A DNA stretch of 45,140 nucleotides from assembly GCF_000372725.1 (NCBI RefSeq), contig NW_005201298.1:74093-119232 (forward strand). The letters are read 5' to 3'. Shown piece by piece: positions 3,253 to 43,399 of this stretch. The DNA is from Emiliania huxleyi CCMP1516. Lineage: Eukaryota. The number at the start of each line of letters is the position of its first letter. Positions within the stretch are counted from its first letter, which is position 1. Both the position numbers and the translations under genes were made by a program. Under the pieces are notes generated by a model. It worked only from the letters and a program-made list of their open reading frames with translations, was not told the origin of the DNA and made no database searches.

Positions 3253-3920
3253 TTATTCAGTCCCTGTACTCTTGTATCGCTGCCGCGACCGTGTCCGCAC
3301 CTGCATGGTCCAGCAAGTCGCCGTGAAAAACCAAGCGACAGAATGGAAGCCACTATCGTCGGGACCTGACGAGAGGCTTGATACGATCCGACCCTGCGAC
3401 CCTGACGCTGCTGCTCTAGCTATCAGACATGCACTGCTGACTGCTGCCACAATGTGCGACCTGTGCTTGCCCACTAGGCGGCCTTCCCGGTCAGTGGTGA
3501 GGCGCAGTTCAGAGCTGTCGATGGCGCGATGCCGCACTGGTCCCACATTGGTGACACGAGACCGCCAAGTTTGCCGGTCCAAGAGAGAGGCACCGGCGCT
3601 GTCCTGAGAAGGTGCGTGGTCCCTCTTGACTGCCCATGCGCGCGAGGCTGTGTAGGCATAGCCTCGAGAGTGCCAGCAGCCAATCCGAGGCAGTTTGTGA
3701 CGCGCATTGCGTCAGAAGCGTGCACGCAGCTGGAAGCGTGGAAGGACACCTTCCTACTGGCCGTACCGTGTTGAACGGCGATCATCAGCAGCGTGTCACC
3801 AGCTCTGTTGGCCGCGTTTACGTCGGCCGCGTCGCTGCTGAGCCACGCCCGCAGCACTCCCACGTTGCCGTTCGCCGCCGCCCTCACGACGTTCGGCGGC
3901 GCCTTCACGATGCGCGGCAT
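3253..3920 (-). CDS. Small ankyrin-repeat protein or fragment; exon structure uncertain
   Basis: The ATG at 3920 gives VVRAAANGNVGVLRAWLSSDAADVNAANRAGDTLLMIAVQHG, an ankyrin consensus, followed by a GT donor. The downstream exon is not securely identified. Confidence 0.45.
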
Positions 3921-4111
3921 TGCCGAGAGGGGGGGGGGGGGGGGGGCGCCCCGTGTTTCCGTTCCTCTTTGCGGGCTCTGTTTGCTGCCTCTGCTTGAAA
4001 TGACGTCCGCAAAAAAAGAAATCTTGACACCGAGTCCACCGTGGAGGCACAAAAGGCACAGTCCGAACACATCTGCCGGGGCCCGGCCAGCCACAGTCAG
4101 CAGTCTCCCCA

Positions 4112-4696
4112 ATGGCGGAGCAATTGTGGCACACCGTTTTCGAGGACAGCAAGATTGGGCAGCAGCCGCAGCGCGTGATCGGCGAGCTGCTCGCGGCGGC
4201 GTTCCAGGAGGTGCTGCCATCGATTGAGTCGGTGCCACCGATAAGGTTCAACACGACGGCTTGCGACGCCGCGGGCGGGAAGCTGCAGACCCAACAGTGG
4301 CGCTTGCTGGAGTTGTCACTCGAGAATCTGCAGCACGCAACCATCTTTGGAGGAGACGGCAGCGGCCAGTTTGGAGTGTGCCGGCCGCGCGCGCCCAGAC
4401 AAGGAATCAGAGCACAGCTGGCGTTCTTGGAGGCGCATCCCGAACGTAAGGTTTGTGTGATGCTGCCAATCACGGTGCCACTGCTTCGCAAGGTGGCAAC
4501 CATACTCGTCTTTGACTACCTGCTGTGGAACTACAATCGATTCCGCAACTACAAGGCTAAGCGGCCACCCATCTTGCATTACACCCGGAACACCTTTGTG
4601 CGGCGGAGCAGCACCGGCGCTCCTCTCTCTCTCGCCACCTTCTCGCCGGCCAGCATCGCCTCGCCTAGCGCGCCGTTCGCCTTCATTGGTGCGTAG
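4112..4696 (+). CDS. Hypothetical protein (194 aa)
   Basis: ATG-initiated ORF with protein-like composition; no recognised domain. Confidence 0.3.
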   Translation: MAEQLWHTVFEDSKIGQQPQRVIGELLAAAFQEVLPSIESVPPIRFNTTACDAAGGKLQTQQWRLLELSLENLQHATIFGGDGSGQFGVCRPRAPRQGIRAQLAFLEAHPERKVCVMLPITVPLLRKVATILVFDYLLWNYNRFRNYKAKRPPILHYTRNTFVRRSSTGAPLSLATFSPASIASPSAPFAFIGA

Positions 4697-7735: not shown

Positions 7736-8116
7736 GCAGTTGGCGCGCCACCCGGTGGAGCGCCACGTGCGCCACCGCTTCTGATGACCGTCGTCCATCC
7801 GCCATAGCATTGGAGTCGGTCGGGAGACGGTGCTCCTTCGCCGGCATCGATTGTAGACATCTCGGCGAATAGGAAGACGTAGGTGCTGTGCGAATATTCG
7901 CGCGTTGACGCGGGCGCTGGACTGCGGCCGCGACGCTGGTTGCGGCGAGCGCCTAGACGGTGCTCGTCGCAAACAACGAAAGATGAAACAACGAAGTAAG
8001 AAATACCTTTGGGTAACGGCAAACACAACCATAATCCACGGCCTCGGCGCCTCCGGCGCTGATCGCTACTGGCTCCCCTCTCGCTCGCCGTGCTTCACTG
8101 GCATAGGCCAGCCACC

Positions 8117-8875
8117 ATGCCGCCGCCGTTTTGGGGCGCGATCGATGCGGCGCACACCTTCTGCGAGCCGAAGTATGCAACTTCCACCGTCGTCGCCGAA
8201 TTCTTCAATGCGCTCTCGTCGTTCGTCTACATGGCAGCTGGGGCGGCCATGCTCTGCCGTGGCTGCCACTGGAAGGTCGGTGCGGGCTACGCAATGCTCA
8301 TCGTGGTTGGCGTGGGCTCGGTGCTCTTCCACGCCACCATGCGCTTCACAATGGAGCTCTGTGACGAGGTCCCGATGCTGCTGCTAATCATCGCCTTTCT
8401 CCTCGGCAAGGAGGATTGCCTCGATTGCCTCTCGGGCCCAGCCGGGCGGCGGCGATTCCGCGTGGGCTCGGCGGTGGCCGTCGCGCTCTCCACCGCCGCG
8501 TACATCCACTTCAAAGTGTACCAGATCTTTGTCATCTCATTCACGCTGATGGTGCTCTTCCTGATCGCGACGCACTTCTTCCCGTCGGCGCGCCGCCGCT
8601 GGACGCCCGCCCTCCAGACCTGCTTCGCGCGCGCCGTCGGCGGCATCGGCGCCGGCAAGCTCGTGTGGGAGGCGGAGCAGCGCCTCTGCGCCGCGCACCC
8701 CGGCGTGTGGCCGCTGCACATCGCGTGGCACGTCCTATCGTGCATCGGAGGCGTCTACGCAACCAAATACAATGAGGAGCTGCGCGCGATCGTCGCCATC
8801 GAGGGGACGAAGGAGGCTGGCCGTGAGCCGCGGCGATCGCCACGACTGGTGGGGGCGCACACGAAGCGGCACTGA
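8117..8875 (+). CDS. ACER: Alkaline ceramidase (CREST superfamily), intronless
   Basis: FWGAIDAAHTFCEPKY...AEFFNALSS, GSVLFHATM, DEVPM and HIAWH motifs, plus several hydrophobic helices; ATG at 8117 in GCCACCATG context. Confidence 0.92.
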   Translation: MPPPFWGAIDAAHTFCEPKYATSTVVAEFFNALSSFVYMAAGAAMLCRGCHWKVGAGYAMLIVVGVGSVLFHATMRFTMELCDEVPMLLLIIAFLLGKEDCLDCLSGPAGRRRFRVGSAVAVALSTAAYIHFKVYQIFVISFTLMVLFLIATHFFPSARRRWTPALQTCFARAVGGIGAGKLVWEAEQRLCAAHPGVWPLHIAWHVLSCIGGVYATKYNEELRAIVAIEGTKEAGREPRRSPRLVGAHTKRH

Positions 8876-9900: not shown

Positions 9901-10470
9901 CTAGCGCGCAGGCGGTGCCCGACAGGCTCCGCCGCCCACGGCTGCTTGAGCGTCTTCTTCGCGTGCACAACCAGCTCGTGCGCCTCTGCCGAGGAGTGGA
10001 GAAGTACTGCAGCAGCGCGAGAGCATACTCGCGCAGGGCGGCCTCCTCGACCAGGACAGCAACCCCAAACATCGGGCCGGTCCTCTCGAGCAGCTTGAAG
10101 CCGATCCGGTCGCGCATATGGTCACGACGTAGAAAAAGGATGGCGGGAGATGGCGTTGCGCATGAAAGGCCCGAACAAACCGCTCGGGGATGTTGTCGAG
10201 GGGATCCCACGTCCAACCATCGACATCGTCGCCTTCCCAGGCGATCAGAAGCTCGATCCCCCCAGCTCTCTGCCGCCACGAGATGACCTTCTCGACGTTG
10301 TAGCTCTCTGGCAGCACGGCCGTTTTCGGCCCCGCCCGGACCTGCGGCGGTTTTGGTTGGATTCCGTGAGATACCGATTTTTCTGTCACTGAATAATTGG
10401 CATAGTGCTTGCCATGAGGGTGTTGAGGGTTGGGGGGGCGGTGGTATGCGCCACATAAATCGGGAAGTAC
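9901..10470 (-). CDS. Chromodomain-containing ORF or fragment; start uncertain
   Basis: YNVEKVISWRQRAGGIELLIAWEGDDVDGWTWDPLDNIPERFVRAF (~10160-10305) fits the chromodomain consensus Y.VE.I...R.....L..W.G.....TW.P..N. Confidence 0.6.
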   Translation of the reverse strand, partial: VLPDLCGAYHRPPNPQHPHGKHYANYSVTEKSVSHGIQPKPPQVRAGPKTAVLPESYNVEKVISWRQRAGGIELLIAWEGDDVDGWTWDPLDNIPERFVRAFHAQRHLPPSFFYVVTICATGSASSCSRGPARCLGLLSWSRRPPCASMLSRCCSTSPLLGRGARAGCAREEDAQAAVGGGACRAPPAR

Positions 10471-11065
10471 CATCCTGTGCGCCGCAAAGGCCGATCGCGC
10501 CCGACGGTGGGGCGGCTCACCGCACACACACAGTTGCGAGGCCGAGCCCGCCGGGCGCGTAGAGCCGAGTGGCCGGGGGGGAGGCGGACCAGGGAAACCG
10601 CGCGCGGCAGTGCGAGGTGACACGATGTGGCGCGGGCACGGCGGGGGAGACGCAGACGGCGCTGTGCTAGGGGGGCGCGGAGCGCACATGGCACATTGTA
10701 GCGCAGAAAAGGGACTCGAAAAGGGCCTGATGAGTGTGGGAAAAGTGGAACAAGCTCCAGTCGCACCGTGCCCGTCTCCTACCCGACGGTGGCACTCTTC
10801 CACGTCTCGCTCACGCTGAGAAAAATTCTGAAACTAGAACACCCAACATACGCACGGTTCCGCCAAAAGAGTGGCAAGTGCCGCGCGCGCCCTCTCTCCG
10901 TTCGCGCTCTCTCGAGCGCACACATGGACATGCAAGATGCATGCCTGCCCCACCACACCATTATACAGTACACGGGGCTCGCGTTGAGATACACACATTT
11001 GCGGCGCGGCGGCGCTTTGCCCGCTTCGCGGCGCGCGCTCCTGCCCCCTCCGCCCGCCCGCCGCC

Positions 11066-18451: not shown

Positions 18452-21400
18452 TCAGCCCCTGTAGCGCGCAGCGGCCGCCGCCGCCACGGCGGCCGCGGCC
18501 GCGGCGGCGGCGGCGAGCGCAAGAGCGCCCGCCGACGGCGCCTGACTCCACGCCGCCACCGGGCCCTTGTCGGCGGCGCGCTTGGCCTTGTCCGAGAGGA
18601 TGGCGGCGGCGGCGCTGTCACGAGACGCCTTTGCGTTGCGTCGGCCGGCGCGCGATCACATGAGTATATGAGTAGCAGTCCCAGACTAGCAATACTCCCC
18701 AGACGCCTTTGCGTTGCCCGGCCGGCGCGCGAGCTTGAGGGCGCGCGCGTCGAGATGCGCCTCCACGTCGGCGATAGTGACGCCGGCGGCGACGCAGCGC
18801 ACGAGCGCGAAGAAGAGGAGGTCGGCGGCCTACCATTAATGAACAACTCTCATTAATTAATATTAACTGATATACCCGAGATGACCCGCGACTACCCGAG
18901 GTCGTCCTCAGTTTAAGGAAGAGGGGGTGGGCGGCCTCAGAGGCGATGTGGAGGTAATCTCGGGTGATCTCGGGTAATCTCAGGTAATCTCGGGTAATCT
19001 CGGGTAGTCTCGGGTAATCTCGGGGATTTCGGGGAGGAGGTCGGCGGCCTCAGAGGCGATGTCGTCTGGCTCCTCTGCCTCTGCCAGCTCCTGCGCCTAG
19101 ATGATCCGAGATGCCCCGAGATGCCCCGAGATGCCCCGAGATGACCCTCCGCCTCTGCCAGCTCCCGCGAACCTCTTCCACAAGCTTGGAGCGGAGGAGG
19201 GTCGAGTCGTCAAAGAGCCGCTTGGTGTACGAGCCGGCCGGCGCCGAGCCTGCGGTGTGAGTGCGCCGGCATGAGGGCGGGAGGACGGTGTCGGGCAGAG
19301 TACTTGTGGCACCGCGTGAGTACGAGGGAGGCGAGTACAATGTGCACAGCGGAGTGCGGCCGAGTACGGCGGAGTCCGTGTCGTCTCGAGCGCTACCGGG
19401 AGCACAAGAACACGGCTCCGCTCCTCCCCGCTGCCCCTGCTCACGAGATATGGGGAGATACGGGGGAGATACGGGGAGAGATTCCGCTTCTAGGGGCCGC
19501 CGCGCCGCGCCGCGACTGCAGCGTCTCCTGCAGCGCGCGTAGGCCGCTCGGGAAGCCCCAGCACGTCAGCGTGCCTGCAGGGGCAGCACGAGACACTACT
19601 GACTGGCAGTGGCCCCACCGCATAGCATGACCCCCCCCCCCCCCCAGCAATGTCAGCGTGCCTCGGTGGCAAAAGGATGGCGGCGAGCCGTACTGGCGGA
19701 CAGTGAAGCGGAGTGCGTCGCCGTCGGAGTCGACGGCCACACGGCAGAGCCGCTGCCACGCGCCTACTCCCATCGACAGTCTCTTCAACCTCTGAACCTT
19801 CACTCGCGCGGCAGAGCCGCTGCCACGCGCCTACTCCCATCGACAGTCTCTTCAGCCTCTGAACCTTCACTCGCGCGGCAGAGTCGCTGCCACGCGCCTA
19901 CTCCCATCGACAGTCTCTTCAACCTCTGAACCTTCACTCGCGCGGCAGAGTCGCTGCCACGCGCCTACTCCCATCGACAGTCTCTTCAACCTCTGAACCT
20001 TCACTCGCGCGGCAGAGTCGCTGCCACGCGCCTACTCCCATCGACAGTCTCTTCAACCTCTGAACCTTCACTCGCGCGGCAGAGTCGCTGCCACGCGCCT
20101 ACTCCCATCGACAGTCTCTTCAACCTCTGAACCTTCACTCGCGCGGCTGAGCCGCTGCCACGCGCCTACTCCCATCGACAGTCTCTTCAACCTCTGAACC
20201 TTCACTCGCGCGGCAGAGTCGCTGCCACGCGCCTACTCCCATCGACAGTCTCTTCAACCTCTGAACCTTCACTCGCGCGGCAGAGTCGCTGCCACGCGCC
20301 TACTCCCATCGACAGTCTCTTCAACCTCTGAACCTTCACTCGCGCGGCAGAGTCGCTGCCACGCGCCTACTCCCATCGACAGTCTCTTCAACCTCTGAAC
20401 CTTCACTCGCGCGGCAGAGTCGCTGCCACGCGCCTACTCCCATCGACAGTCTCTTCAACCTCTGAACCTTCACTCGCGCGGCAGAGTCGCTGCCACGCGC
20501 CTACTCCCATCGACAGTCTCTTCAACCTCTGAACCTTCACTCGCGCGGCAGAGTCGCTGCCACGCGCCTACTCCCATCGACAGTCTCTTCAACCTCTGAA
20601 CCTTCACTCGCGCGGCAGAGTCGCTGCCACGCGCCTACTCCCATCGACAGTCTCTTCAACCTCTGAACCTTCACTCGCGCGGCAGAGTCGCTGCCACGCG
20701 CCTACTCCCATCGACAGTCTCTTCAACCTCTGAACCTTCACTCGCGCGGCAGAGTCGCTGCCACGCGCCTACTCCCATCGACAGTCTCTTCAACCTCTGA
20801 ACCTTCACTCGCGCGGCAGAGTCGCTGCCACGCGCCTACTCCCATCGACAGTCTCTTCAACCTCTGAACCTTCACTCGCGCGGCAGAGTCGCTGCCACGC
20901 GCCTACTCCCATCGACAGTCTCTTCAACCTCTGAACCTTCACTCGCGCGGCAGAGTCGCTGCCACGCGCCTACTCCCATCGACAGTCTCTTCAACCTCTG
21001 AACCTTCACTCGCGCGGCAGAGTCGCTGCCACGCGCCTACTCCCATCGACAGTCTCTTCAACCTCTGAACCTTCACTCGCGCGGCAGAGTCGCTGCCACG
21101 CGCCTACTCCCATCGACAGTCTCTTCAGCCTCTGAACCTTCACTCGCGCGGCAGAGTCGCTGCCACGCGCCTACTCCCATCGACAGTCTCTTCAGCCTCT
21201 GAACCTTCACTCGCGCGGCAGAGCCGCTGCCACGCGCCTACTCCCATCGACAGTCTCTTCAGCCTCTGAACCCTCACTCGCGCGGCAGAGTCGCTGCCAC
21301 GCGCCTACTCCCATCGACAGTCTCTTCAACCTCTGAACCTTCACTCGCGCGGCAGAGCCGCTGCCACGCGCCTACTCCCATCGACAGTCTCTTCAACCTC

Positions 21401-23813
21401 TGAACCTTCACTCGCGCGGCAGAGTCGCTGCCACGCGCCTACTCCCATCGACAGTCTCTTCAACCTCTGAACCTTCACTCGCGCGGCAGAGTCGCTGCCA
21501 CGCGCCTACTCCCATCGACAGTCTCTTCAACCTCTGAACCTTCACTCGCGCGGCTGAGCCGCTGCCACGCGCCTACTCCCATCGACAGTCTCTTCAACCT
21601 CTGAACCTTCACTCGCGCGGCAGAGTCGCTGCCACGCGCCTACTCCCATCGACAGTCTCTTCAACCTCTGAACCTTCACTCGCGCGGCAGAGCCGCTGCC
21701 ACGCGCCTACTCCCATCGACAGTCTCTTCAACCTCTGAACCTTCACTCGCGCGGCAGAGCCGCTGCCACGCGCCTACTCCCATCGACAGTCTCTTCAACC
21801 TCTGAACCTTCACTCGCGCGGCAGAGTCGCTGCCACGCGCCTACTCCCATCGACAGTCTCTTCAGCCTCTGAACCTTCACTCGCGCGGCAGAGTCGCTGC
21901 CACGCGCCTACTCCCATCGACAGTCTCTTCAGCCTCTGAACCTTCACTCGCGCGGCAGAGTCGCTGCCACGCGCCTACTCCCATCGACAGTCTCTTCAAC
22001 CTCTGAACCTTCACTCGCGCGGCAGAGCCGCTGCCACGCGCGCCAGACGAGTCGCCCTTCCGCCAGAGAGAGCGGCGAGAGCGGGACCAGTAGACGCCGC
22101 GGCCGGAGCGGAGCGCGGCGCAGACGGACTCCGCCGTCGAGTAGACGAGGCCTGAAGAATGAAGAATGCGGACCCCCTCTTGGTAACGAGCTCATTCATG
22201 GCTCGGGCCCCGTCGGCGAGGAGGCGAGGCCGAGGGCGACGCCGCCCTCCTCCTCCACCACCTATGGTGGTTGCACTCTTCCGCGTCGCAACCGCCTGTG
22301 ACATCCGTACCGCCGCCCTCCTCCTCCACCGTTGAGAGCAAGCCATCCGGCCGGTCGGACCGCACCGCCGCGGCCAGCGCCTGTGGACATGGCTGGGACA
22401 TGTCGTGGACATGTCACGGACATGTCGTGGACGTATCGCGGACATGTCGTGGGCGTGTCGTGGACATGTCGTGGGCGTGTCGTGGACATGCACATGTCGT
22501 GGACATGTCGCGGACGTGTCGCGGACGTGTCGTGCACATGTCGCGGGTGTGTCGTGGACCTGGCCGAGGGCATCTCGTGAGAGTGTGTGTGGTCTCCTCG
22601 TTGGAGCACCTATCCCCACACCGAACGTCTCGCGCATGCTCCCACTCCTACCCCTCGTGCCACTGCCCCTCTCCCCTTCTCGCCATTGATACGCGCCTGT
22701 CCCGCGTCGATCAGCTCTTCTCCGCCCGCAGGCGCCTCCGCAACGTCCTCCGCCCGCCGCCAGAAGCCTACGTTGTGATGTGAAAACTGCGTTGAGACGA
22801 CGCCGACGGGAGGGCGTGAAGACGGCAACTTGTGGCAGCGTACTCAGAGCACCGCGTGAGTACGGGTGGGGACGAAAGCAGCGAACACATCCGCATCCAG
22901 CGGCATACAGCCGAGTGCGTCTCCTCTCGAGTGCTGGTTGGGATGCATGAACACGTATTCCGCTTCTAGGGCCAGAGTCCGCCACTAACCGACGGCACCG
23001 GTGCGGCCGCGGGCGTCGGCGCCGCCACCCGCTCCGCCCGCCTCGGGAGGGGGCCGAGCGATGCCGGGGCCGCGAGGCCGAGGTTGAGGGCGTGGAGCTC
23101 GGCGAGCCTAACCAGTTGGGCTCGCACTGGTCGAACTTAATTAAATTCGTCCCCAAAGTCCGAGGGCGAGGGCGTGCACGCTCGGCGCGCCGGGCCAGGG
23201 AGGGGGAGAGCGACGCTCCGGAGACCACGACCAGCAGCCGGTCCGTCGCCGCGAGGCTGGCCGACACCCGCTTCAGCAGCGCCGCGTCCGCCGCCGCGTC
23301 TGGAAGGAGGAGAAGGACGCCGGCGGCGGCGCCGACGGTGTGGGGCCGCTCGCACTCGCGGCAACCGGAGCCGGTCTTGGCGGCGAGAGACTCGAGTGCG
23401 AGAAGGAGCTGCTCAGACGTCGTCTCGGCTGCAGGAGAGAGGACGACGAGCAGGCGCTCAGCGGGCAGCGCCGCGTCCTTGGCCGCCTGGCGCACTGCCG
23501 CGCACAGCTCCGCCGGAGGCGTCGCGGGGTCCGGAGTGAGCAGCGCGTACAGCGCTCCGGCATGAAGCCACTCCCGCGCCTTGGCCGCCTCGTCCAGCCG
23601 GAAGGGGCCGACCGCGCAGCCCGCGCTGCGCAAGAGCGCGACGCGGGCAGCCGACGGCGGCGAAGCGAGCTCGGCTTCGCTCAGCCAGCAGACGAGGCAG
23701 CTGCCGAGGCCGAGGCGGCGGAGCACCTCGTCGTCGCTCTCGCCGGCCGCCTCGCCCTTGATGAGAGGCGAGAGGGACTTCGTGCGGAGGTCAACCACTG
23801 GCCAGAGCACCAT
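18452..23813 (-). CDS. hisIE: Bifunctional phosphoribosyl-AMP cyclohydrolase / phosphoribosyl-ATP pyrophosphatase with a His4-like N-terminal extension (~534 aa)
   Basis: Exons 23813-23191, 23107-22983, 22767-22697, 22380-22330, 22261-22231, 22151-22044, 19763-19662, 19574-19506, 19249-19173, 19096-19049, 18829-18707, 18628-18452 are in frame. Motifs: SDRPDGLLSTVV, LGLVYS, YWSRSRRSLWRKGDSSG, DSDGDAL, FCHRGTLTCW, GSYTKRLF, KLVEEAQEL, EAADLLFF. Confidence 0.92.
19250..19505 (-). mobile_element. Introner-like element, copy 2 (hisIE intron), with an inserted 10-mer repeat
   Basis: - strand: CCTAGAAGCGGAA...AGCGCTCGAGACGACAC...CTCGTACTCACGCGGTGC...CCGTCCTCCCGCCCTCATGCCGGCGCACTCAC..CAG. Confidence 0.7.
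19764..22043 (-). repeat. 34 tandem 67-bp units forming a 2280-nt intron of hisIE
   Basis: Unit on the - strand: GCGCGTGGCAGCG(A/G)CTCTGCC-GCGCGAGTGAAGGTTCAGAGGTTGAAGAGACTGTCGATGGGAGTAG. 2280 = 34 x 67 + 2, and the units are nearly identical. Confidence 0.95.
22768..22982 (-). mobile_element. Introner-like element, copy 3 (hisIE intron)
   Basis: - strand: CCTAGAAGCGGAATACG..TGCATCCCAACCAGCACTCGAGAGG...CGTACTCACGCGGTGCTCTGA...CCGTCTTCACGCCCTC. Confidence 0.7.
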
Positions 23814-33000: not shown

Positions 33001-33847
33001 GGCTGGCTCGAACTGCTCGAGGCCAGCTGCCTGACTTGTATTGACAGCGAGTGTGTCGCCACTCGCTCCTGATCACACGTTGAGGGGGGCGTGGACATGT
33101 TAGCCCTCGGCAGCTGCGATGCGCACACACCTGTCGCACGGATCCAGCGGTGGTGGCGATATGCTGCTCGGCGAGCCAAAGAGAGCGTGCCACCGAGAGC
33201 GTGCCACCGAGAGCGTGCCACCTAGAGCGGAGTGCGCCGCCCTCCGCAGCGGGAGTCGGTTGCGGGTGGTGCAGCGGCGCCGTGATAGAACAACAGGCGC
33301 CGGCTCGGCACGCTGAGTGCACACGCGACGCGTCGCGCGTGCACGCACTGCTCGTGCAGCGCCAAACAGCGTCCGCCAGCGCAGAGAAAGGAGCCCGTGC
33401 CGACTCGTGCACGCCTGCGACAGCTCGAGCGGCTCAGCGCGAGTGCTGGCTCACATCCGGTCGGCTCACAGTGCTTGGGCAGCCAGGCTCACCGTCGGCG
33501 AGAGCAGCTGCGAGCGACACCACGTCGAGCCAAGGCGACGCTTTCTTCCGTGGCCGCCGCGGCTCGTTTCCGCCACGCGGTGGGGTGCGGCGGAGGCCGA
33601 GGCGTGCGCCAGCCGCGCTCGAGACCAGCAGGCGGCCTGGGAGGGCGCTCACACGCCGCGACGACCTCGGCGAAGCGAGGCGTCGCGCCAGGTCATTCAC
33701 GGTTATGCATAGACTAGTGTGGGACCTGCGGCGGTACCCGTCTCTGTTGTTCGGGCAGTGAGAGACGCAGGATCTGCACGCCAAAGTGGGCCACTCATTT
33801 GCATTTTGGTTTTGGGTTGTCGGAGATCATCCATCAGCACTCATGTC

Positions 33848-34040
33848 TCATCAGTCAGTCACGTCAGTCAAAGCAGTTCGTGGCACTCATCAGTCAGTCA
33901 CGTCAGTCAAAGCAGTTCGTGGCACTCATCAGTCAGTCACGTCAGTCAAAGCAGTTCGTGGCACTCATCAGTCAGTCACGTCAGTCAAAGCAGCCGTGGC
34001 ACTCATCAGTCAGTCACGTCAGTCAAAGCAGTCGTGGCAC
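33848..34040. repeat. 39-bp tandem repeat, about 5 units
   Basis: CTCATCAGTCAGTCACGTCAGTCAAAGCAGTTCGTGGCA is repeated. Confidence 0.92.
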
Positions 34041-35282
34041 GTGGAGCAGTCGCTGCATGCAACGGCGCCGCCACACGCTCCGGACGACCCCGACAACCGA
34101 CACACCACGCACAATGGGAGGCTATCGCGCACGATCGGGCATCGCGCCGCAAACAACTCGCCGCACAGATGGGGGGGGAGGCAGAATCCCACACACACCG
34201 GAGCAGCACAGACACCTTACACGTCAGCGCTCGCTCGATGTGGCCGGCGCTCTCCCCTCGGTCCTATCTCGCCTTTTCAACGGCGGCGTGCGGCCACGCG
34301 CCGCGCCGAGCCGGTCTCGGCGGGAGACCTCGGAGCCGCACGCGATGCGGGCATGCGCGATGGCTCCGTTGGCTCCGTGCCTAAGGCAGATCGATTAGGG
34401 TGTGAGCTGCGGCAGCCACCGTTTCTGTACCCGCTCGATCACGTGCAGGCCGTCGGAGGCCGCGCTGGATGGCCCAGGGCCGGCGGCGGTGAAGGCGTCC
34501 GTCGATGAAGGGATGTCGTCGAGGGAGCCATCGTCCTACGCGGACGGTGCACCGGTCCAGTTGTCGGAGTCCGAGATCGCAGTCGCCCGTTGAAGAACTC
34601 ACGGAATGTGAGCGACTTGGTGCACGCTGGGTCGAGCATCATGACTCGCACCTCATCCTGGGCGAGGAACTCGCCCAGGGACCAGCTGTTGGCGTCGCCG
34701 TTTTGATCGAGCTGCATCCACTGCATGGTTTCGTAGTCAAGCGTAAACGCCCAGGAGTTGGTGCCTGGGTGACTTGCTGATGAGAGCGCCTTCCAGGCGG
34801 GTAGTCGTGCCCCTCACCTACGGTCATACGGCGGCGTCAGAGGGGGGGAAGGGGCGCGAAGCGTGAACATGGAGGCAAGCAGGTTGGATTCTGCACCTGG
34901 CCAAAGCCGGCGACCTCGAAGTTGTCGTAGCTTGTGCGGATATCGCTGAGCGTGAGAGGGACCGGATCGGCAGCAGCATGGGCGGCCGCGTCAGCGGCCG
35001 GAGAGGCCGGAGAGCCATCCGACGGAGGCCGGTCGTGCATCGGCGCGTCAGCCGCAGGGGCCGGGGGGGCGGCGGCATCCATCGCTGCGGGTCGCTGCGG
35101 GCCGACGATTGTGGACTGATCGATCGTGGCGGGCGGATTTCGGCTGGGACGTTCTACGGTTAAACCAAGAGCGTCGGCGCCGACACGAGAGACTTATAAG
35201 GGTAGAAACGCGGCGGTATTCTTCTTTACCTCACTCCTGGAATCCTATCACGCGTTCCGAGAGCGGGGGCATCTGTGGGTAA

Positions 35283-37935: not shown

Positions 37936-38800
37936 CTAGAAGTTGGCGCGCTTGAGGATGATGTCAATGGCTTCCAAGGCGTTTGGCGTCTTCAATGCGT
38001 TGGCGACGTGTGTTGCATCGCAAGGGTAGTCTGGGGTGCAGTCGAACCAGATGGAGCCCGCGGCAGTTTTGCACTGCTTCAGAATCTTGACCGGGTCGAC
38101 ACTCTCTTCCGGGATGCCAGCTCCTGCAGCCACTATGGTCTGGATGACGTCAGTGCATGGATTAATGTGACGCATGTTGCAATTCGAGTAAGCGTCGCCG
38201 ACCGAGCGAAGGTTGGTCCAGCCCACGCCGACCGAGCGAAGGTTGGTCCAGCCCATGCTTGCCATGCTCCGGAACTTCTTCTCGCAGGTCTCATTGTCGA
38301 CTGCGTAAAGGAGGCTCTTGACATCCTTGAAGGCGCTGATGAAGCCCTGCTGCGAGAAGATCTGGTCGCAATCCTCATCGGTAGCGTACTCCGTGTCAAG
38401 GGCGACCGCATTGGTCATCTTGATCTTTGCCGACCAGTCGGATCGGGCGTTCCAGTACGGGGCGTTCCAATCCTTAACTGAATTTGACACTGCGAGCACG
38501 ACGACGGCCCAGCATGCTGGAGCGCCGTGATGTCCGACGTGGAAACCCCGATGTCAACAATCACGCCCTTGAGGCCCGTAGCCTTGATGGCAGCCCACGT
38601 CGCCTGGAGGTCATTCGGTTTCCCGCCCAGCCAGACGAGGCCAGAAGGAAGAAGGGAGTCCGAAGGGCTTGGCGGCGTTGGCGTGGCCGTGGCAGTAGCC
38701 GTTGTCCTGGCAGTACGTGCCCGAGCACTCGTCAGCGACTGGTGCGGCGAAGGCGAGGACAGCAAAAGATCCGGCGAGAACGAGCTTGGCGAGCATCATG
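37936..38800 (-). pseudogene. Secreted Cys-containing protein, apparently frameshifted
   Basis: Signal peptide MMLAKLVLAGSFAVLAFAA. Coding-like sequence passes through three overlapping frames (38611-38898, 38415-38765, 37936-38499) without evident introns. Confidence 0.4.
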
Positions 38801-39454: not shown

Positions 39455-41128
39455 TCACACGCTACACGTGCGGTGGGAGGGGGACCCAGTGTGGTCCAGA
39501 GTCCGCCGCGCGGTGCGTGCTGCGCGATAGGTCGTCGACGGTGAAGTCGACTCTCGCGCCAAGCACTCCGACTCTCGGGCCCCCCACTCCAACTCCGCTT
39601 CCAGCCGGTCGACGAGATCTCCAAAGTGCTGTCGCGGGAAGATGAGCCCGCGGCGCTCTGCAATCAGCTCGATGAGCTGCGGGCCGGCGAGCGGCGGCGA
39701 GGCCTGCTGCGGTACGTGCTGCGGCCCCTTTCCGCGCGAGAGGTGTCTGCCCGCGGCGACGCTCGGGTCGAGCGCGGCGATGACGGCGAGGCCATACAGG
39801 CCGAGCACGACGTCGACGAGGAGGGCCTTGTCCGCCTCGTGCGTAAAGTGGCCGTTGAACACGTTGACCGACTCCTCGATCCACCGCCGGCGGGACGAGA
39901 GCTGGGAGAGGGAGGAGTCAAAGACGTACATCTGCGCCGACCCGTTGATGGCCATGAACGCCCACTGCTCGAGTCGGCACCACCCGCGCTGCAAGTACGT
40001 GTCCGCGTCGACCTTGCAGGGCGGGCGCGAGTCCTGGTGGAGCGCCTCGGGAGCGCAGGCGAGGAAGTAGTGCGAGCAGGCGGCGTAGAGGGCGATCGAG
40101 CCGATCGCGAGCCGCTTGGTCGTCGTGTTCTCCTGTGGTACTGCGGCGGGGCGGCGAGGGCGAGAGGCGGNNNNNNNNNNNNNNNNNNNNNNNNNNNNNN
40201 NNNNNNNNNNNNNNNNNNNNNNNNNNNNNNNNNNNNNNNNNNNNNNNNNNNNNNNNNNNNNNNNNNNNNNNNNNNNNNNNNNNNNNNNNNNNNNNNNNNN
40301 NNNNNNNNNNNNNNNNNNNNNNNNNNNNNNNNNNNNNNNNNNNNNNNNNNNNNNNNNNNNNNNNNNNNNNNNNNNNNNNNNNNNNNNNNNNNNNNNNNNN
40401 NNNNNNNNNNNNNNNGGGGGGAGGGGGGCGGTAGCGCACTCGAGTGGTAGTCGAGCCAGATATGGAGCGACTCGGGGTCGAGGCCTTGCCTCGCGCAAAG
40501 CGCCTCGGCCGCCTCGAGGATGGCTGGGTAGTGCTGCGCCTTGGGGTCCGGGTGGTGGCGAGAGAGCCACTGGTGCGAGACAAACATGACGGGGAGGCCG
40601 GCTGCGAAAGCCACCGCCGACTCGACGGTGTCGCAGAAGCGGAGGGCACCAGCGTCGCGCGCCTTCGTCATGCACACGCCAGCATCAGGGTGGGAATGCG
40701 GTTTCGTGCGCGCATTCAAGCATCGTGTGATACAAATACAGCCGAATGCAGCCGAATACGGCCGAATGCAGCGGAGTGTGCGCCCTCTCGAGCGCTGGTT
40801 GGGAGACAAGAAGACGTGTTCCGCTTCTAGGACCGCGCGCCTCCTCGTACGAGACAAGGCGGCCCTGCTCGCGTAGCTTCGAGAGCGGCATCACCGCGAG
40901 CGGAAACTCGAGCGTCGTGACGCCCGTCACCGCCTGGCGGATGCGTCTGTCCTTCTCGGCGCTCTCTCGCTCAACCTAAGGTAAGGCAAGGCCAGGTCAA
41001 CTTCTCCGCACACACGAGGTGGTGGGGCAAGGGCCAAGCAGTCCCTCGCGGCCCCACGTCTAGAAGACAGGAGCCCCGGCATCAAAGTGCAAGGCCCGGT
41101 GCGCGTGGGTGAGCGGTGTGTGTGTGTG

Positions 41129-41186
<58 letters not shown>

Positions 41187-41274
41187 TGTGTGTGTGTGTG
41201 TGTGTGAGTGTGTGTGTGAGTGTGTGTGTGAGTGTGTGCGTGAGTGTGTGTGTGTGTGTGTGTGAGTGTGTGAG

Positions 41275-41338
<64 letters not shown>

Positions 41339-42270
41339 TGAGTGAGTGAGGGGGGGGGGTCGCGCTCGACCTCCGCGAGGCGCAGCAACCGACGGAGATA
41401 CACGCACCGCACGAAGGTCAGCAGGACGACAATGACACCGAGGGCGCAGACACTCGTGCCCGCGATCGCTGGCCACTGCTGCGGCACGCACCTGGGGAGA
41501 TGTGTCAGGAGATGTGGGGAGATATATCAGGAGATATGGGGAGATGTATCAGGAGATATGGGGAGATATGGGGAGATGTGGCCACTGCTGCGGCACGCAC
41601 CTCCCGTTGCCCGCGCTCGGCTTGTGGTACGCGAAACGGCAAGGCTGGCACTCGGCAGCCGGCAAGCGCCTGTCATGGGTAGGCGGGCCATCCTAGATAA
41701 CTCGATCACTGTTGACTTTGTGAGGGCGGCCGGCACGGCCGCACCACCCCTCTCACTGTACAAGGTGCGAGAGTGAGAGCGCCACGCAGAGAGGGTATCT
41801 CCGGACCTCACATAAGGCCTCCTCGAGCTGGCTAGAGGAGGTCGGTGGGAGGGAGAGGTGGAGAAAGAGGGACTTGGAGGTGTCCGTGTGTGTTTGCTTG
41901 CACGCGCCTCAGCGCTTCAAAGTCGACCTCGAAGCCGGACGCATCGTCCGCCCGGAAGGTCGGCTCGAGGTGCGCGCCGCAGCCGCACCCGCGACTTGGC
42001 AGCGGCACGAGCGGCGCCGGACACCGCGCGATGATCGTGCGCGTGTCAACGAGCGCGCCGTCGAGCAGCAGCAGGAGCGCGTGCGCGCCGACGAGCGGCG
42101 CGAGCACGGTTGCCTTGTACCGGCCGTCCGAGGCATAGACGACCGCCATGTCGTCGTGTGCACCGGAGGCGCTGTCGCGGACGAGGACGGTGAACGCCTG
42201 TGTTGCGTGTCCGACGGTCACTGTGCTATCGTGCGGCTTCGGGCCCGGGGCTGTGCTTTTGTGTGAACGC
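39455..42270 (-). CDS. Single-pass receptor-like protein: filamin/Ig-like segment, Cys repeat, TM helix and HET-like cytoplasmic domain (partial, gapped)
   Basis: In order: DGRYKATVLAPLVGAHALLLLLDG (filamin-like); ECQPCRFAYHKPSAGNGR|CVP (ephrin-receptor-like Cys repeat); VCALGVIVVLLTFV-RCVYLRR (TM plus stop-transfer); FVSHQW..HPDP..IWLDYHS..PQ..YLQRGWCRLEQW (HET-like). Confidence 0.7.
40663..40840 (-). mobile_element. Introner-like element, copy 4 (receptor-like gene intron); repeated at ~42371-42486
   Basis: - strand: CCTAGAAGCGGAACACG..TCCCAACCAGCGCTCGAGAGGG..CACTCCGCTGCATTCGGCCG; the 3' half is more diverged. Confidence 0.65.
41116..41348. repeat. (GT)n/(CA)n microsatellite in intron 40976-41370; second copy at 42761-42880
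   Basis: Directly visible. Confidence 0.97.

Positions 42271-42370: not shown

Positions 42371-43399
<1,029 letters not shown>

Follow-up and report, generated by a model that had tools for sequence, protein, structure and literature searches.

A spliced, probable receptor gene of Emiliania huxleyi with a predicted HET/TIR-like cytoplasmic domain, and its family of relatives with swapped sensors

Fungal HET domains (PF06985; HET-E, TOL, and BH) share a set of three motif blocks that closes with a W..E helix, and they show remote kinship to TIR domains. A link between HET and TIR has been reported, with haptophyte homologues noted, in a paper whose accessible text does not describe the architecture presented here (PMC4986451). 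How HET acts is an open question; the accessible parts of several reviews record neither an activity nor a structure, and HET activity is treated there as not established (PMC10197012, PMC12881547, PMC10890737, PMC9153377). The accessible text of two preprints (10.64898/2026.04.20.719644 and 10.64898/2026.10.11.758280) does not discuss HET, and the list of tested protist TIRs in the former might include the clade described here. In the alga Gephyrocapsa (Emiliania) huxleyi, proteins with an ectodomain, a transmembrane (TM) helix, and a TIR domain were chosen by six TIR Pfam models, not by HET; according to the available portions of that study, their TIR domains span 76-128 amino acids (aa) and carry SHAW/SHSW motifs (PMC12489294). 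Searches of the full-text literature, subscription papers aside, turned up no report of a family of algal TM-HET receptors. We analyzed a 45,140-nucleotide (nt) stretch of E. huxleyi CCMP1516 (contig NW_005201298.1, positions 74,093 to 119,232; hereafter the window) and describe in it a probable receptor gene of the same alga, with a predicted cytoplasmic domain that has the three HET-type blocks.

The gene is GC-rich, contains introns, and lies on the minus strand. Six exons join into a single stop-free frame of 507 aa (GC content at third codon positions, 0.87), the window's share of a 739-aa protein along which residues are numbered below. We set the exons from reads and contigs of public runs, three of RNA type (X1, X3, and X12) and one of DNA type (X10). 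The features, in the direction of transcription, are as follows.

42371..43399, minus: second copy of 40725-41860 (exons C, D, and E), between gaps of N
42198..42270, minus: intron end, AG acceptor at 42199-42198
41908..42197, minus: exon A, the greater part of the second predicted Ig-like domain plus the first half of the Cys module
41670..41907, minus: intron, 238 nt, GC-AG, often retained
41601..41669, minus: exon C, remaining half of the Cys module (resembling ephrin receptors, below cut-off)
41492..41600, minus: intron, 109 nt, GT-AG, with a 24-nt direct repeat spanning both ends
41371..41491, minus: exon D, the one predicted TM helix (41469-41395), then basic stop-transfer residues
40976..41370, minus: intron, 395 nt, GT-AG, with a CA microsatellite inside; its splicing links the TM exon to the cytoplasmic exons
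40841..40975, minus: exon E, where the juxtamembrane helix ends and the cytoplasmic domain starts (profile A1, E 1e-12)
40440..40662, minus: exon F, SHQW, PDP, and WLDY blocks and the first two strands of the predicted TIR-like core, with conservation
39455..40140, minus: exon G, PQ block and third strand, then RGWCRLE, whose Glu (39970-39968) is the catalytic candidate, and finally a helical extension, the tail, and the stop codon

A single spliced mRNA encodes the 739-aa protein. None of the listed runs is recorded as RNA; our claim of expression is based on spliced joints, and transcription was seen in all three RNA-type runs. The joint 40140|40440 was crossed by 12 raw X12 reads and by X1 and X3 contigs, and 40655|40834 by 11 X12 reads and contigs of the same two runs. 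X1 and X3 contigs crossed from exon D to exon E from both sides. For the exon C-D joint no read was listed; it is crossed by five database proteins (P0179, P0235, P0236, P0237, and P0244). X10 was unspliced wherever this could be checked. The first mates of X12 fall on the minus strand, a pattern that would indicate plus-strand RNA for most stranded libraries; splice signals and the frame fix the minus strand. Two 739-aa proteins, each from a single contig (2.4 and 2.5 kb; JGI and Logan), span the entire product, with P0237 (from the 2.5-kb contig) differing from the window model at four of 507 positions and P0235 at 13 of 507. Because these single-contig proteins contain both parts, the ectodomain and cytoplasmic exons belong to the same transcript, as the preliminary description of this locus had supposed.

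That description had taken the whole of 39455..42270 as the gene, which needs amending at the upstream end. Positions 42198-42270 are intronic, and the exons for aa 1-232 (a signal-like N terminus and the first Ig-like domain) were not found in the window (tblastn best E 0.39). An X1 contig departs from the window at 42200 and continues for at least 255 foreign letters that are not in the window. The second copy at 42371-43399 differs from the gene at four positions in exon D and none in exon E, and three of the four differences were observed in runs X3, X10, and X12. We rejected a tandem gene duplication in favor of an allele, given these few differences and the behavior of X10, in which no branch appears at 40725, depth stays flat, and one contig extends 868 nt beyond 42270. 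Most likely, the copy is an allelic haplotig set in tandem by the assembly, not a second gene. The public model (EMIHUDRAFT_440473/421896, 277 aa) spans only the cytoplasmic end (39455-40590), lacking ectodomain and TM helix; its UniRef name is "Transcription factor domain-containing protein," and an annotated E. huxleyi protein is identical to the last 277 aa.

The intron at 41670-41907 is a special case. Its joint (41665|41904) was seen in three X12 reads and an X1 contig (depth 143.5), next to an unspliced X1 contig (depth 282); among the X3 contigs listed, only the unspliced form occurs. A guessed 25-nt mini-exon (41831-41807) was dropped, as reads give a single 238-nt intron there. Read-through of the retained intron reaches a stop before the TM helix; retention may yield a soluble ectodomain or may just be incomplete splicing. 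Protein P0179 instead keeps the intron between exons E and F; it would stay anchored in the membrane but lack the enzyme domain. Direct repeats lie across the ends of four of the five introns (41492-41600, 40663-40840, 41670-41907, and 40976-41370, with 24, 9, 6, and 4 nt, respectively), two introns have GC donors, and some of the intron sequence belongs to high-copy dispersed repeats. The repeat-flanked introns could reflect intron gain via insertion with target duplication.

The protein begins with a weakly hydrophobic N terminus (best 11-mer 2.05), followed by two predicted beta-sandwich domains, one six-Cys module, a TM helix (366-384), the basic residues RRLLR, a long helix, a cytoplasmic domain at about 413-700, and a loose tail. 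The TM helix (Kyte-Doolittle 19-mer 2.51) is the one strong hydrophobic helix, and a second hydrophobic stretch (617-635) is a cytoplasmic-domain helix in the models. This order supports a predicted type I, single-pass membrane topology, in line with the earlier proposal of one TM helix. The proposed Cys-repeat segments proved to be the one six-Cys module (Ephrin_rec_like, PF07699, E 0.006, below cut-off). For structure we used a model of the paralogue P0002, identical to our protein at 52 of 95 positions in the available part of the ectodomain and 173 of 233 in the domain. Its ectodomain gave Ig-like matches with E down to 6e-8, first to ciliary central-pair proteins (which we take to be of the Hydin/ASH type), and then to Ig and pilus-chaperone folds. 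Exon A is 99% identical to P0179, and the beta-strands of the paralogue model map onto it. Of the filamin/Ig-like assignment made earlier, the Ig-like half thus stands through the paralogue's model; filamin had no Pfam match and was not among the fold matches listed for that model. A continuous helix (496-551 in P0002, pLDDT 94-97) leads from membrane to domain. Overall, the models predict Ig-like folds, an unbroken TM-to-juxtamembrane helix of ∼55 residues, and a TIR-like core. Closer relatives from Isochrysis and Emiliania have a beta-helix ahead of the same stalk; the receptor gene lacks the beta-helix and retains only the Ig2-Cys stalk, so its protein may serve as an adhesion-type sensor or a short co-receptor.

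The motifs reported earlier (SHQW, PDP, WLDY, PQ, and RGWC..E, plus the TM helix with its basic residues) are all present on the minus strand, with SHQW at 40578-40567, WLDY at 40458-40447, and the E of RGWCRLE at 39970-39968. All three motif blocks occurred in the window. No shuffle out of 100 had them all; at most one block appeared, in 10 of the 100. The HET/TIR-like identity of the domain held up in part. Pfam gathering scores for HET were not reached, with no family at E ≤ 5 for P0235, P0237, P0236, P0179, and P0231, and no HET match from single exons; TIR models matched neither the receptor protein nor, among the families listed (25 of 57), any of 76 members. Relatives reach the Pfam cut-off for HET here, whereas the receptor protein stays below Pfam detection. 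At the family level, homology to the HET profile is detectable (P0010, 23.5 bits against a cut-off of 22.5). HET matched three of seven members (best E 8.9e-6) and 25 of 76 (E ≤ 1, best 1.9e-5), making it the commonest family matched, and one member's UniRef name is "Heterokaryon incompatibility domain-containing protein." Judged by these profiles, the cytoplasmic domain is HET-related at the family level.

Fold comparison did not refute this assignment, and the match to solved TIRs was middling. The candidate catalytic residue, Glu569, sits in a helix (704-717 in the paralogue model) after a strand (676-680). It is Glu in all 84 aligned rows that have a residue there, and the surrounding polar residues are invariant across 86 sequences of ∼30%-40% identity. 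No PDB chain was matched by sequence (profile A1, no matches; A3, two junk matches). A viral structure library gave no match at E ≤ 0.001; viral TIR proteins ranked second and fourth. The best ESM Atlas scores (0.81 and 0.77) were at chance level, with one automatic HET name. PADLOC run on the 76 members returned seven scattered single-member matches, none of them TIR.

A family profile built from seven domains recovered 3382 representatives at E 1e-3, 1881 at E 1e-10, and 487 at E 1e-30. The genera represented among named members are Emiliania, Isochrysis, Prymnesium, Thalassiosira, Stephanopyxis, Alexandrium, and Prorocentrum, and at least five other paralogues are annotated or clustered in E. 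huxleyi. Pattern searches of prokaryote contigs (27 matches) and of viral contigs (21 matches) yielded no confirmed member; distant relatives can escape such searches. We examined TM spacing in 157 sequences (156 top matches and the window model), leaving out 55 that lacked 60 upstream residues or the profile start. A hydrophobic helix lies 25-50 aa before the domain in 93 of 102 sequences, compared with 23 of 532 control windows. Scanning 94 distinct proteins with Pfam revealed Venus-flytrap/ANF, solute-binding (sugar, phosphonate, and betaine types), FG-GAP, Cache/CHASE, MHYT, DOMON-peroxidase, laminin G, and beta-helix ectodomains, with many proteins giving no match. Partners of the domain include a response regulator (P0012), MHYT repeats (P0123), and peroxidase plus DOMON (P0109, Prymnesium). 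In P0100 and P0114, the linker ahead of the domain looks like TM-HAMP by eye, without Pfam confirmation. P0001, a single contig with dynein fused to a HET-type domain, was treated as chimeric.

Fifty members were assigned to sensor classes, some below cut-off or by kinship, and 34 of them have small-molecule sensor types. The domain tree needs 19 sensor changes, where the minimum is eight and shuffled labels require 33; sensors have thus been inherited in part and swapped again and again. The earlier idea of a sensing receptor is supported for a family, in which most sensors are of solute-binding, Cache, MHYT, and DOMON types; together with the response-regulator member, they point to general sensing more than to pathogen recognition.

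We give roughly even odds (about 0.5) to the gene encoding a single-pass surface receptor that signals as an NAD+-cutting enzyme to a messenger. The single transcript, domain order, TM spacing, invariant residues, and sensor swapping are observed; the rest is drawn from TIR biology. By that analogy, ligand binding outside would cluster receptors via the Ig-like outer part, the stalk helix would transmit clustering inward, and the inner HET-type TIR domains would assemble. The assembled domains would cut NAD+ through Glu569 into an ADP-ribose-type messenger, a signal and not a killing reaction. Tentatively, and at somewhat under even odds, haptophytes, diatoms, and dinoflagellates would share an undescribed class of single-pass receptor enzymes, "receptor NADases," with a HET-type TIR output serving hundreds of interchangeable sensors for nutrients, metabolites, gases, redox state, and adhesion. 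If this is true, TIR chemistry would take part in routine sensing of the environment alongside receptor kinases and cyclases, and not in immunity alone. The members that have binding domains of phosphonate, betaine, or sugar type would be natural ligand-gated versions of HET, whose activity a small molecule could switch on.

Kinship to HET also fits an immune or allorecognition receptor that kills the cell, with virus or non-self contact leading to NAD+ depletion and death as in fungal HET. A published table lends this some weight: cogent1224_i1, whose best match is EMIHUDRAFT_449788, the closest paralogue, rises by log2 2.5 (adjusted P 5e-5) only 0.5 h after virus addition (PMC12489294, Table S2). 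Our full-length product would have the same best match among six annotated proteins tried (690 vs. 573 bits). However, the cogent1224_i1 row cannot be assigned to the receptor gene, another row sharing that best match falls at day 3, and the early cluster is common to 548 genes. HET-labelled rows there include canonical-type TIRs (cogent4121_i1), and that study's supplementary file contains neither the annotation ids of the gene itself nor two other family members. Transcription in all three RNA-type runs also argues against this reading, as does the lack of LRR (leucine-rich repeat) or NLR domains in the Pfam scans of the 94 relatives. As to allorecognition, two full-length forms differ at 14 of 357 ectodomain positions, none of 55 in TM and stalk, three of 220 in the domain core, and four of 107 in the tail. 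The ectodomain differs about as much as the tail, so these two sequences show no allorecognition-type diversity. We consider the immune reading unlikely and its allorecognition variant unsupported.

It is distinctly unlikely that the receptor applies the same glutamate chemistry to another substrate (nucleoside, nucleotide, or nucleic acid), as nucleoside deoxyribosyltransferases do, since structural matches are more identical to TIRs (12%-17%) than to transferases (5%-9%) and the motif blocks are akin to those of the alga's canonical TIRs (SHSW/WLD/SRLWC..E). The invariant polar residues around Glu569 make it improbable that the domain is a noncatalytic scaffold recruiting cytosolic HET/TIR adaptors, as in classical Toll-like receptors. 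That unrelated exons were joined by eye is hardly credible: three N gaps and one duplicated block in or beside the gene, and a public model of only the last 277 aa, invite the suspicion, which is refuted by the joints in RNA runs, full-length proteins from two sources, and colinear paralogues.

Elsewhere in the window, no defense cluster was evident among 20 frames scanned with Pfam; four of them (3477-4247, 8063-8872, 9904-10833, and 33762-34505) matched ankyrin, ceramidase, weak chromo, and weak Argonaute-linker families. Directly downstream of the gene (37936-38800, minus) lies Cys/Trp-rich coding sequence over three frames, with a signal-peptide-like start, lower GC, and no Pfam match. A tandem array at 19742-22041 has a 67-bp unit, with copies about 99% identical.

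How does the receptor compare with known systems? The alga's membrane TIR proteins (such as cogent1101_i1) likewise have an extracellular region, one TM helix, and an intracellular TIR with a conserved Glu, and solute-binding and EGF-type ectodomains of kinds that the HET-type family also uses (PMC12489294). Early induction after virus addition may be a further likeness. Compared with those TIRs, the HET-type clade has an extended domain of roughly 300 aa and no TIR Pfam match, and the strings SHQW and RGWC do not occur in that study's supplementary file. The clade escapes Pfam TIR screens, and gene models truncate its members; TIR-type signalling in bloom-forming algae would extend past the set of 15 canonical TIR genes examined during virus infection. 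Fungal HET is N-terminal on cytosolic NLR proteins, whereas the domain here is C-terminal to the TM helix of a type I receptor, and NLR context (NACHT/NB-ARC plus repeats) was absent from the receptor protein and the 94 relatives scanned.

Toll-like and interleukin-1 receptors likewise have an ectodomain, one TM helix, and a cytoplasmic TIR-fold domain, and interleukin-1 receptors have an Ig-like ectodomain. Unlike them, our protein has a long juxtamembrane helix, Ig-like matches to ciliary central-pair and pilus-chaperone folds, and no Pfam match to LRR, its ectodomain being predicted as beta-sandwich. "Toll-like," as the preliminary description put it, is apt for the topology and not for membership in that class. 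Receptor guanylyl/adenylyl cyclases and receptor kinases have one catalytic module, a helical stalk, and exchangeable ANF/Venus-flytrap, solute-binding, Cache/CHASE, or MHYT sensors. The family looks like their counterpart, with one TIR/HET-like output module under many sensors, in an analogy of design and not of homology.
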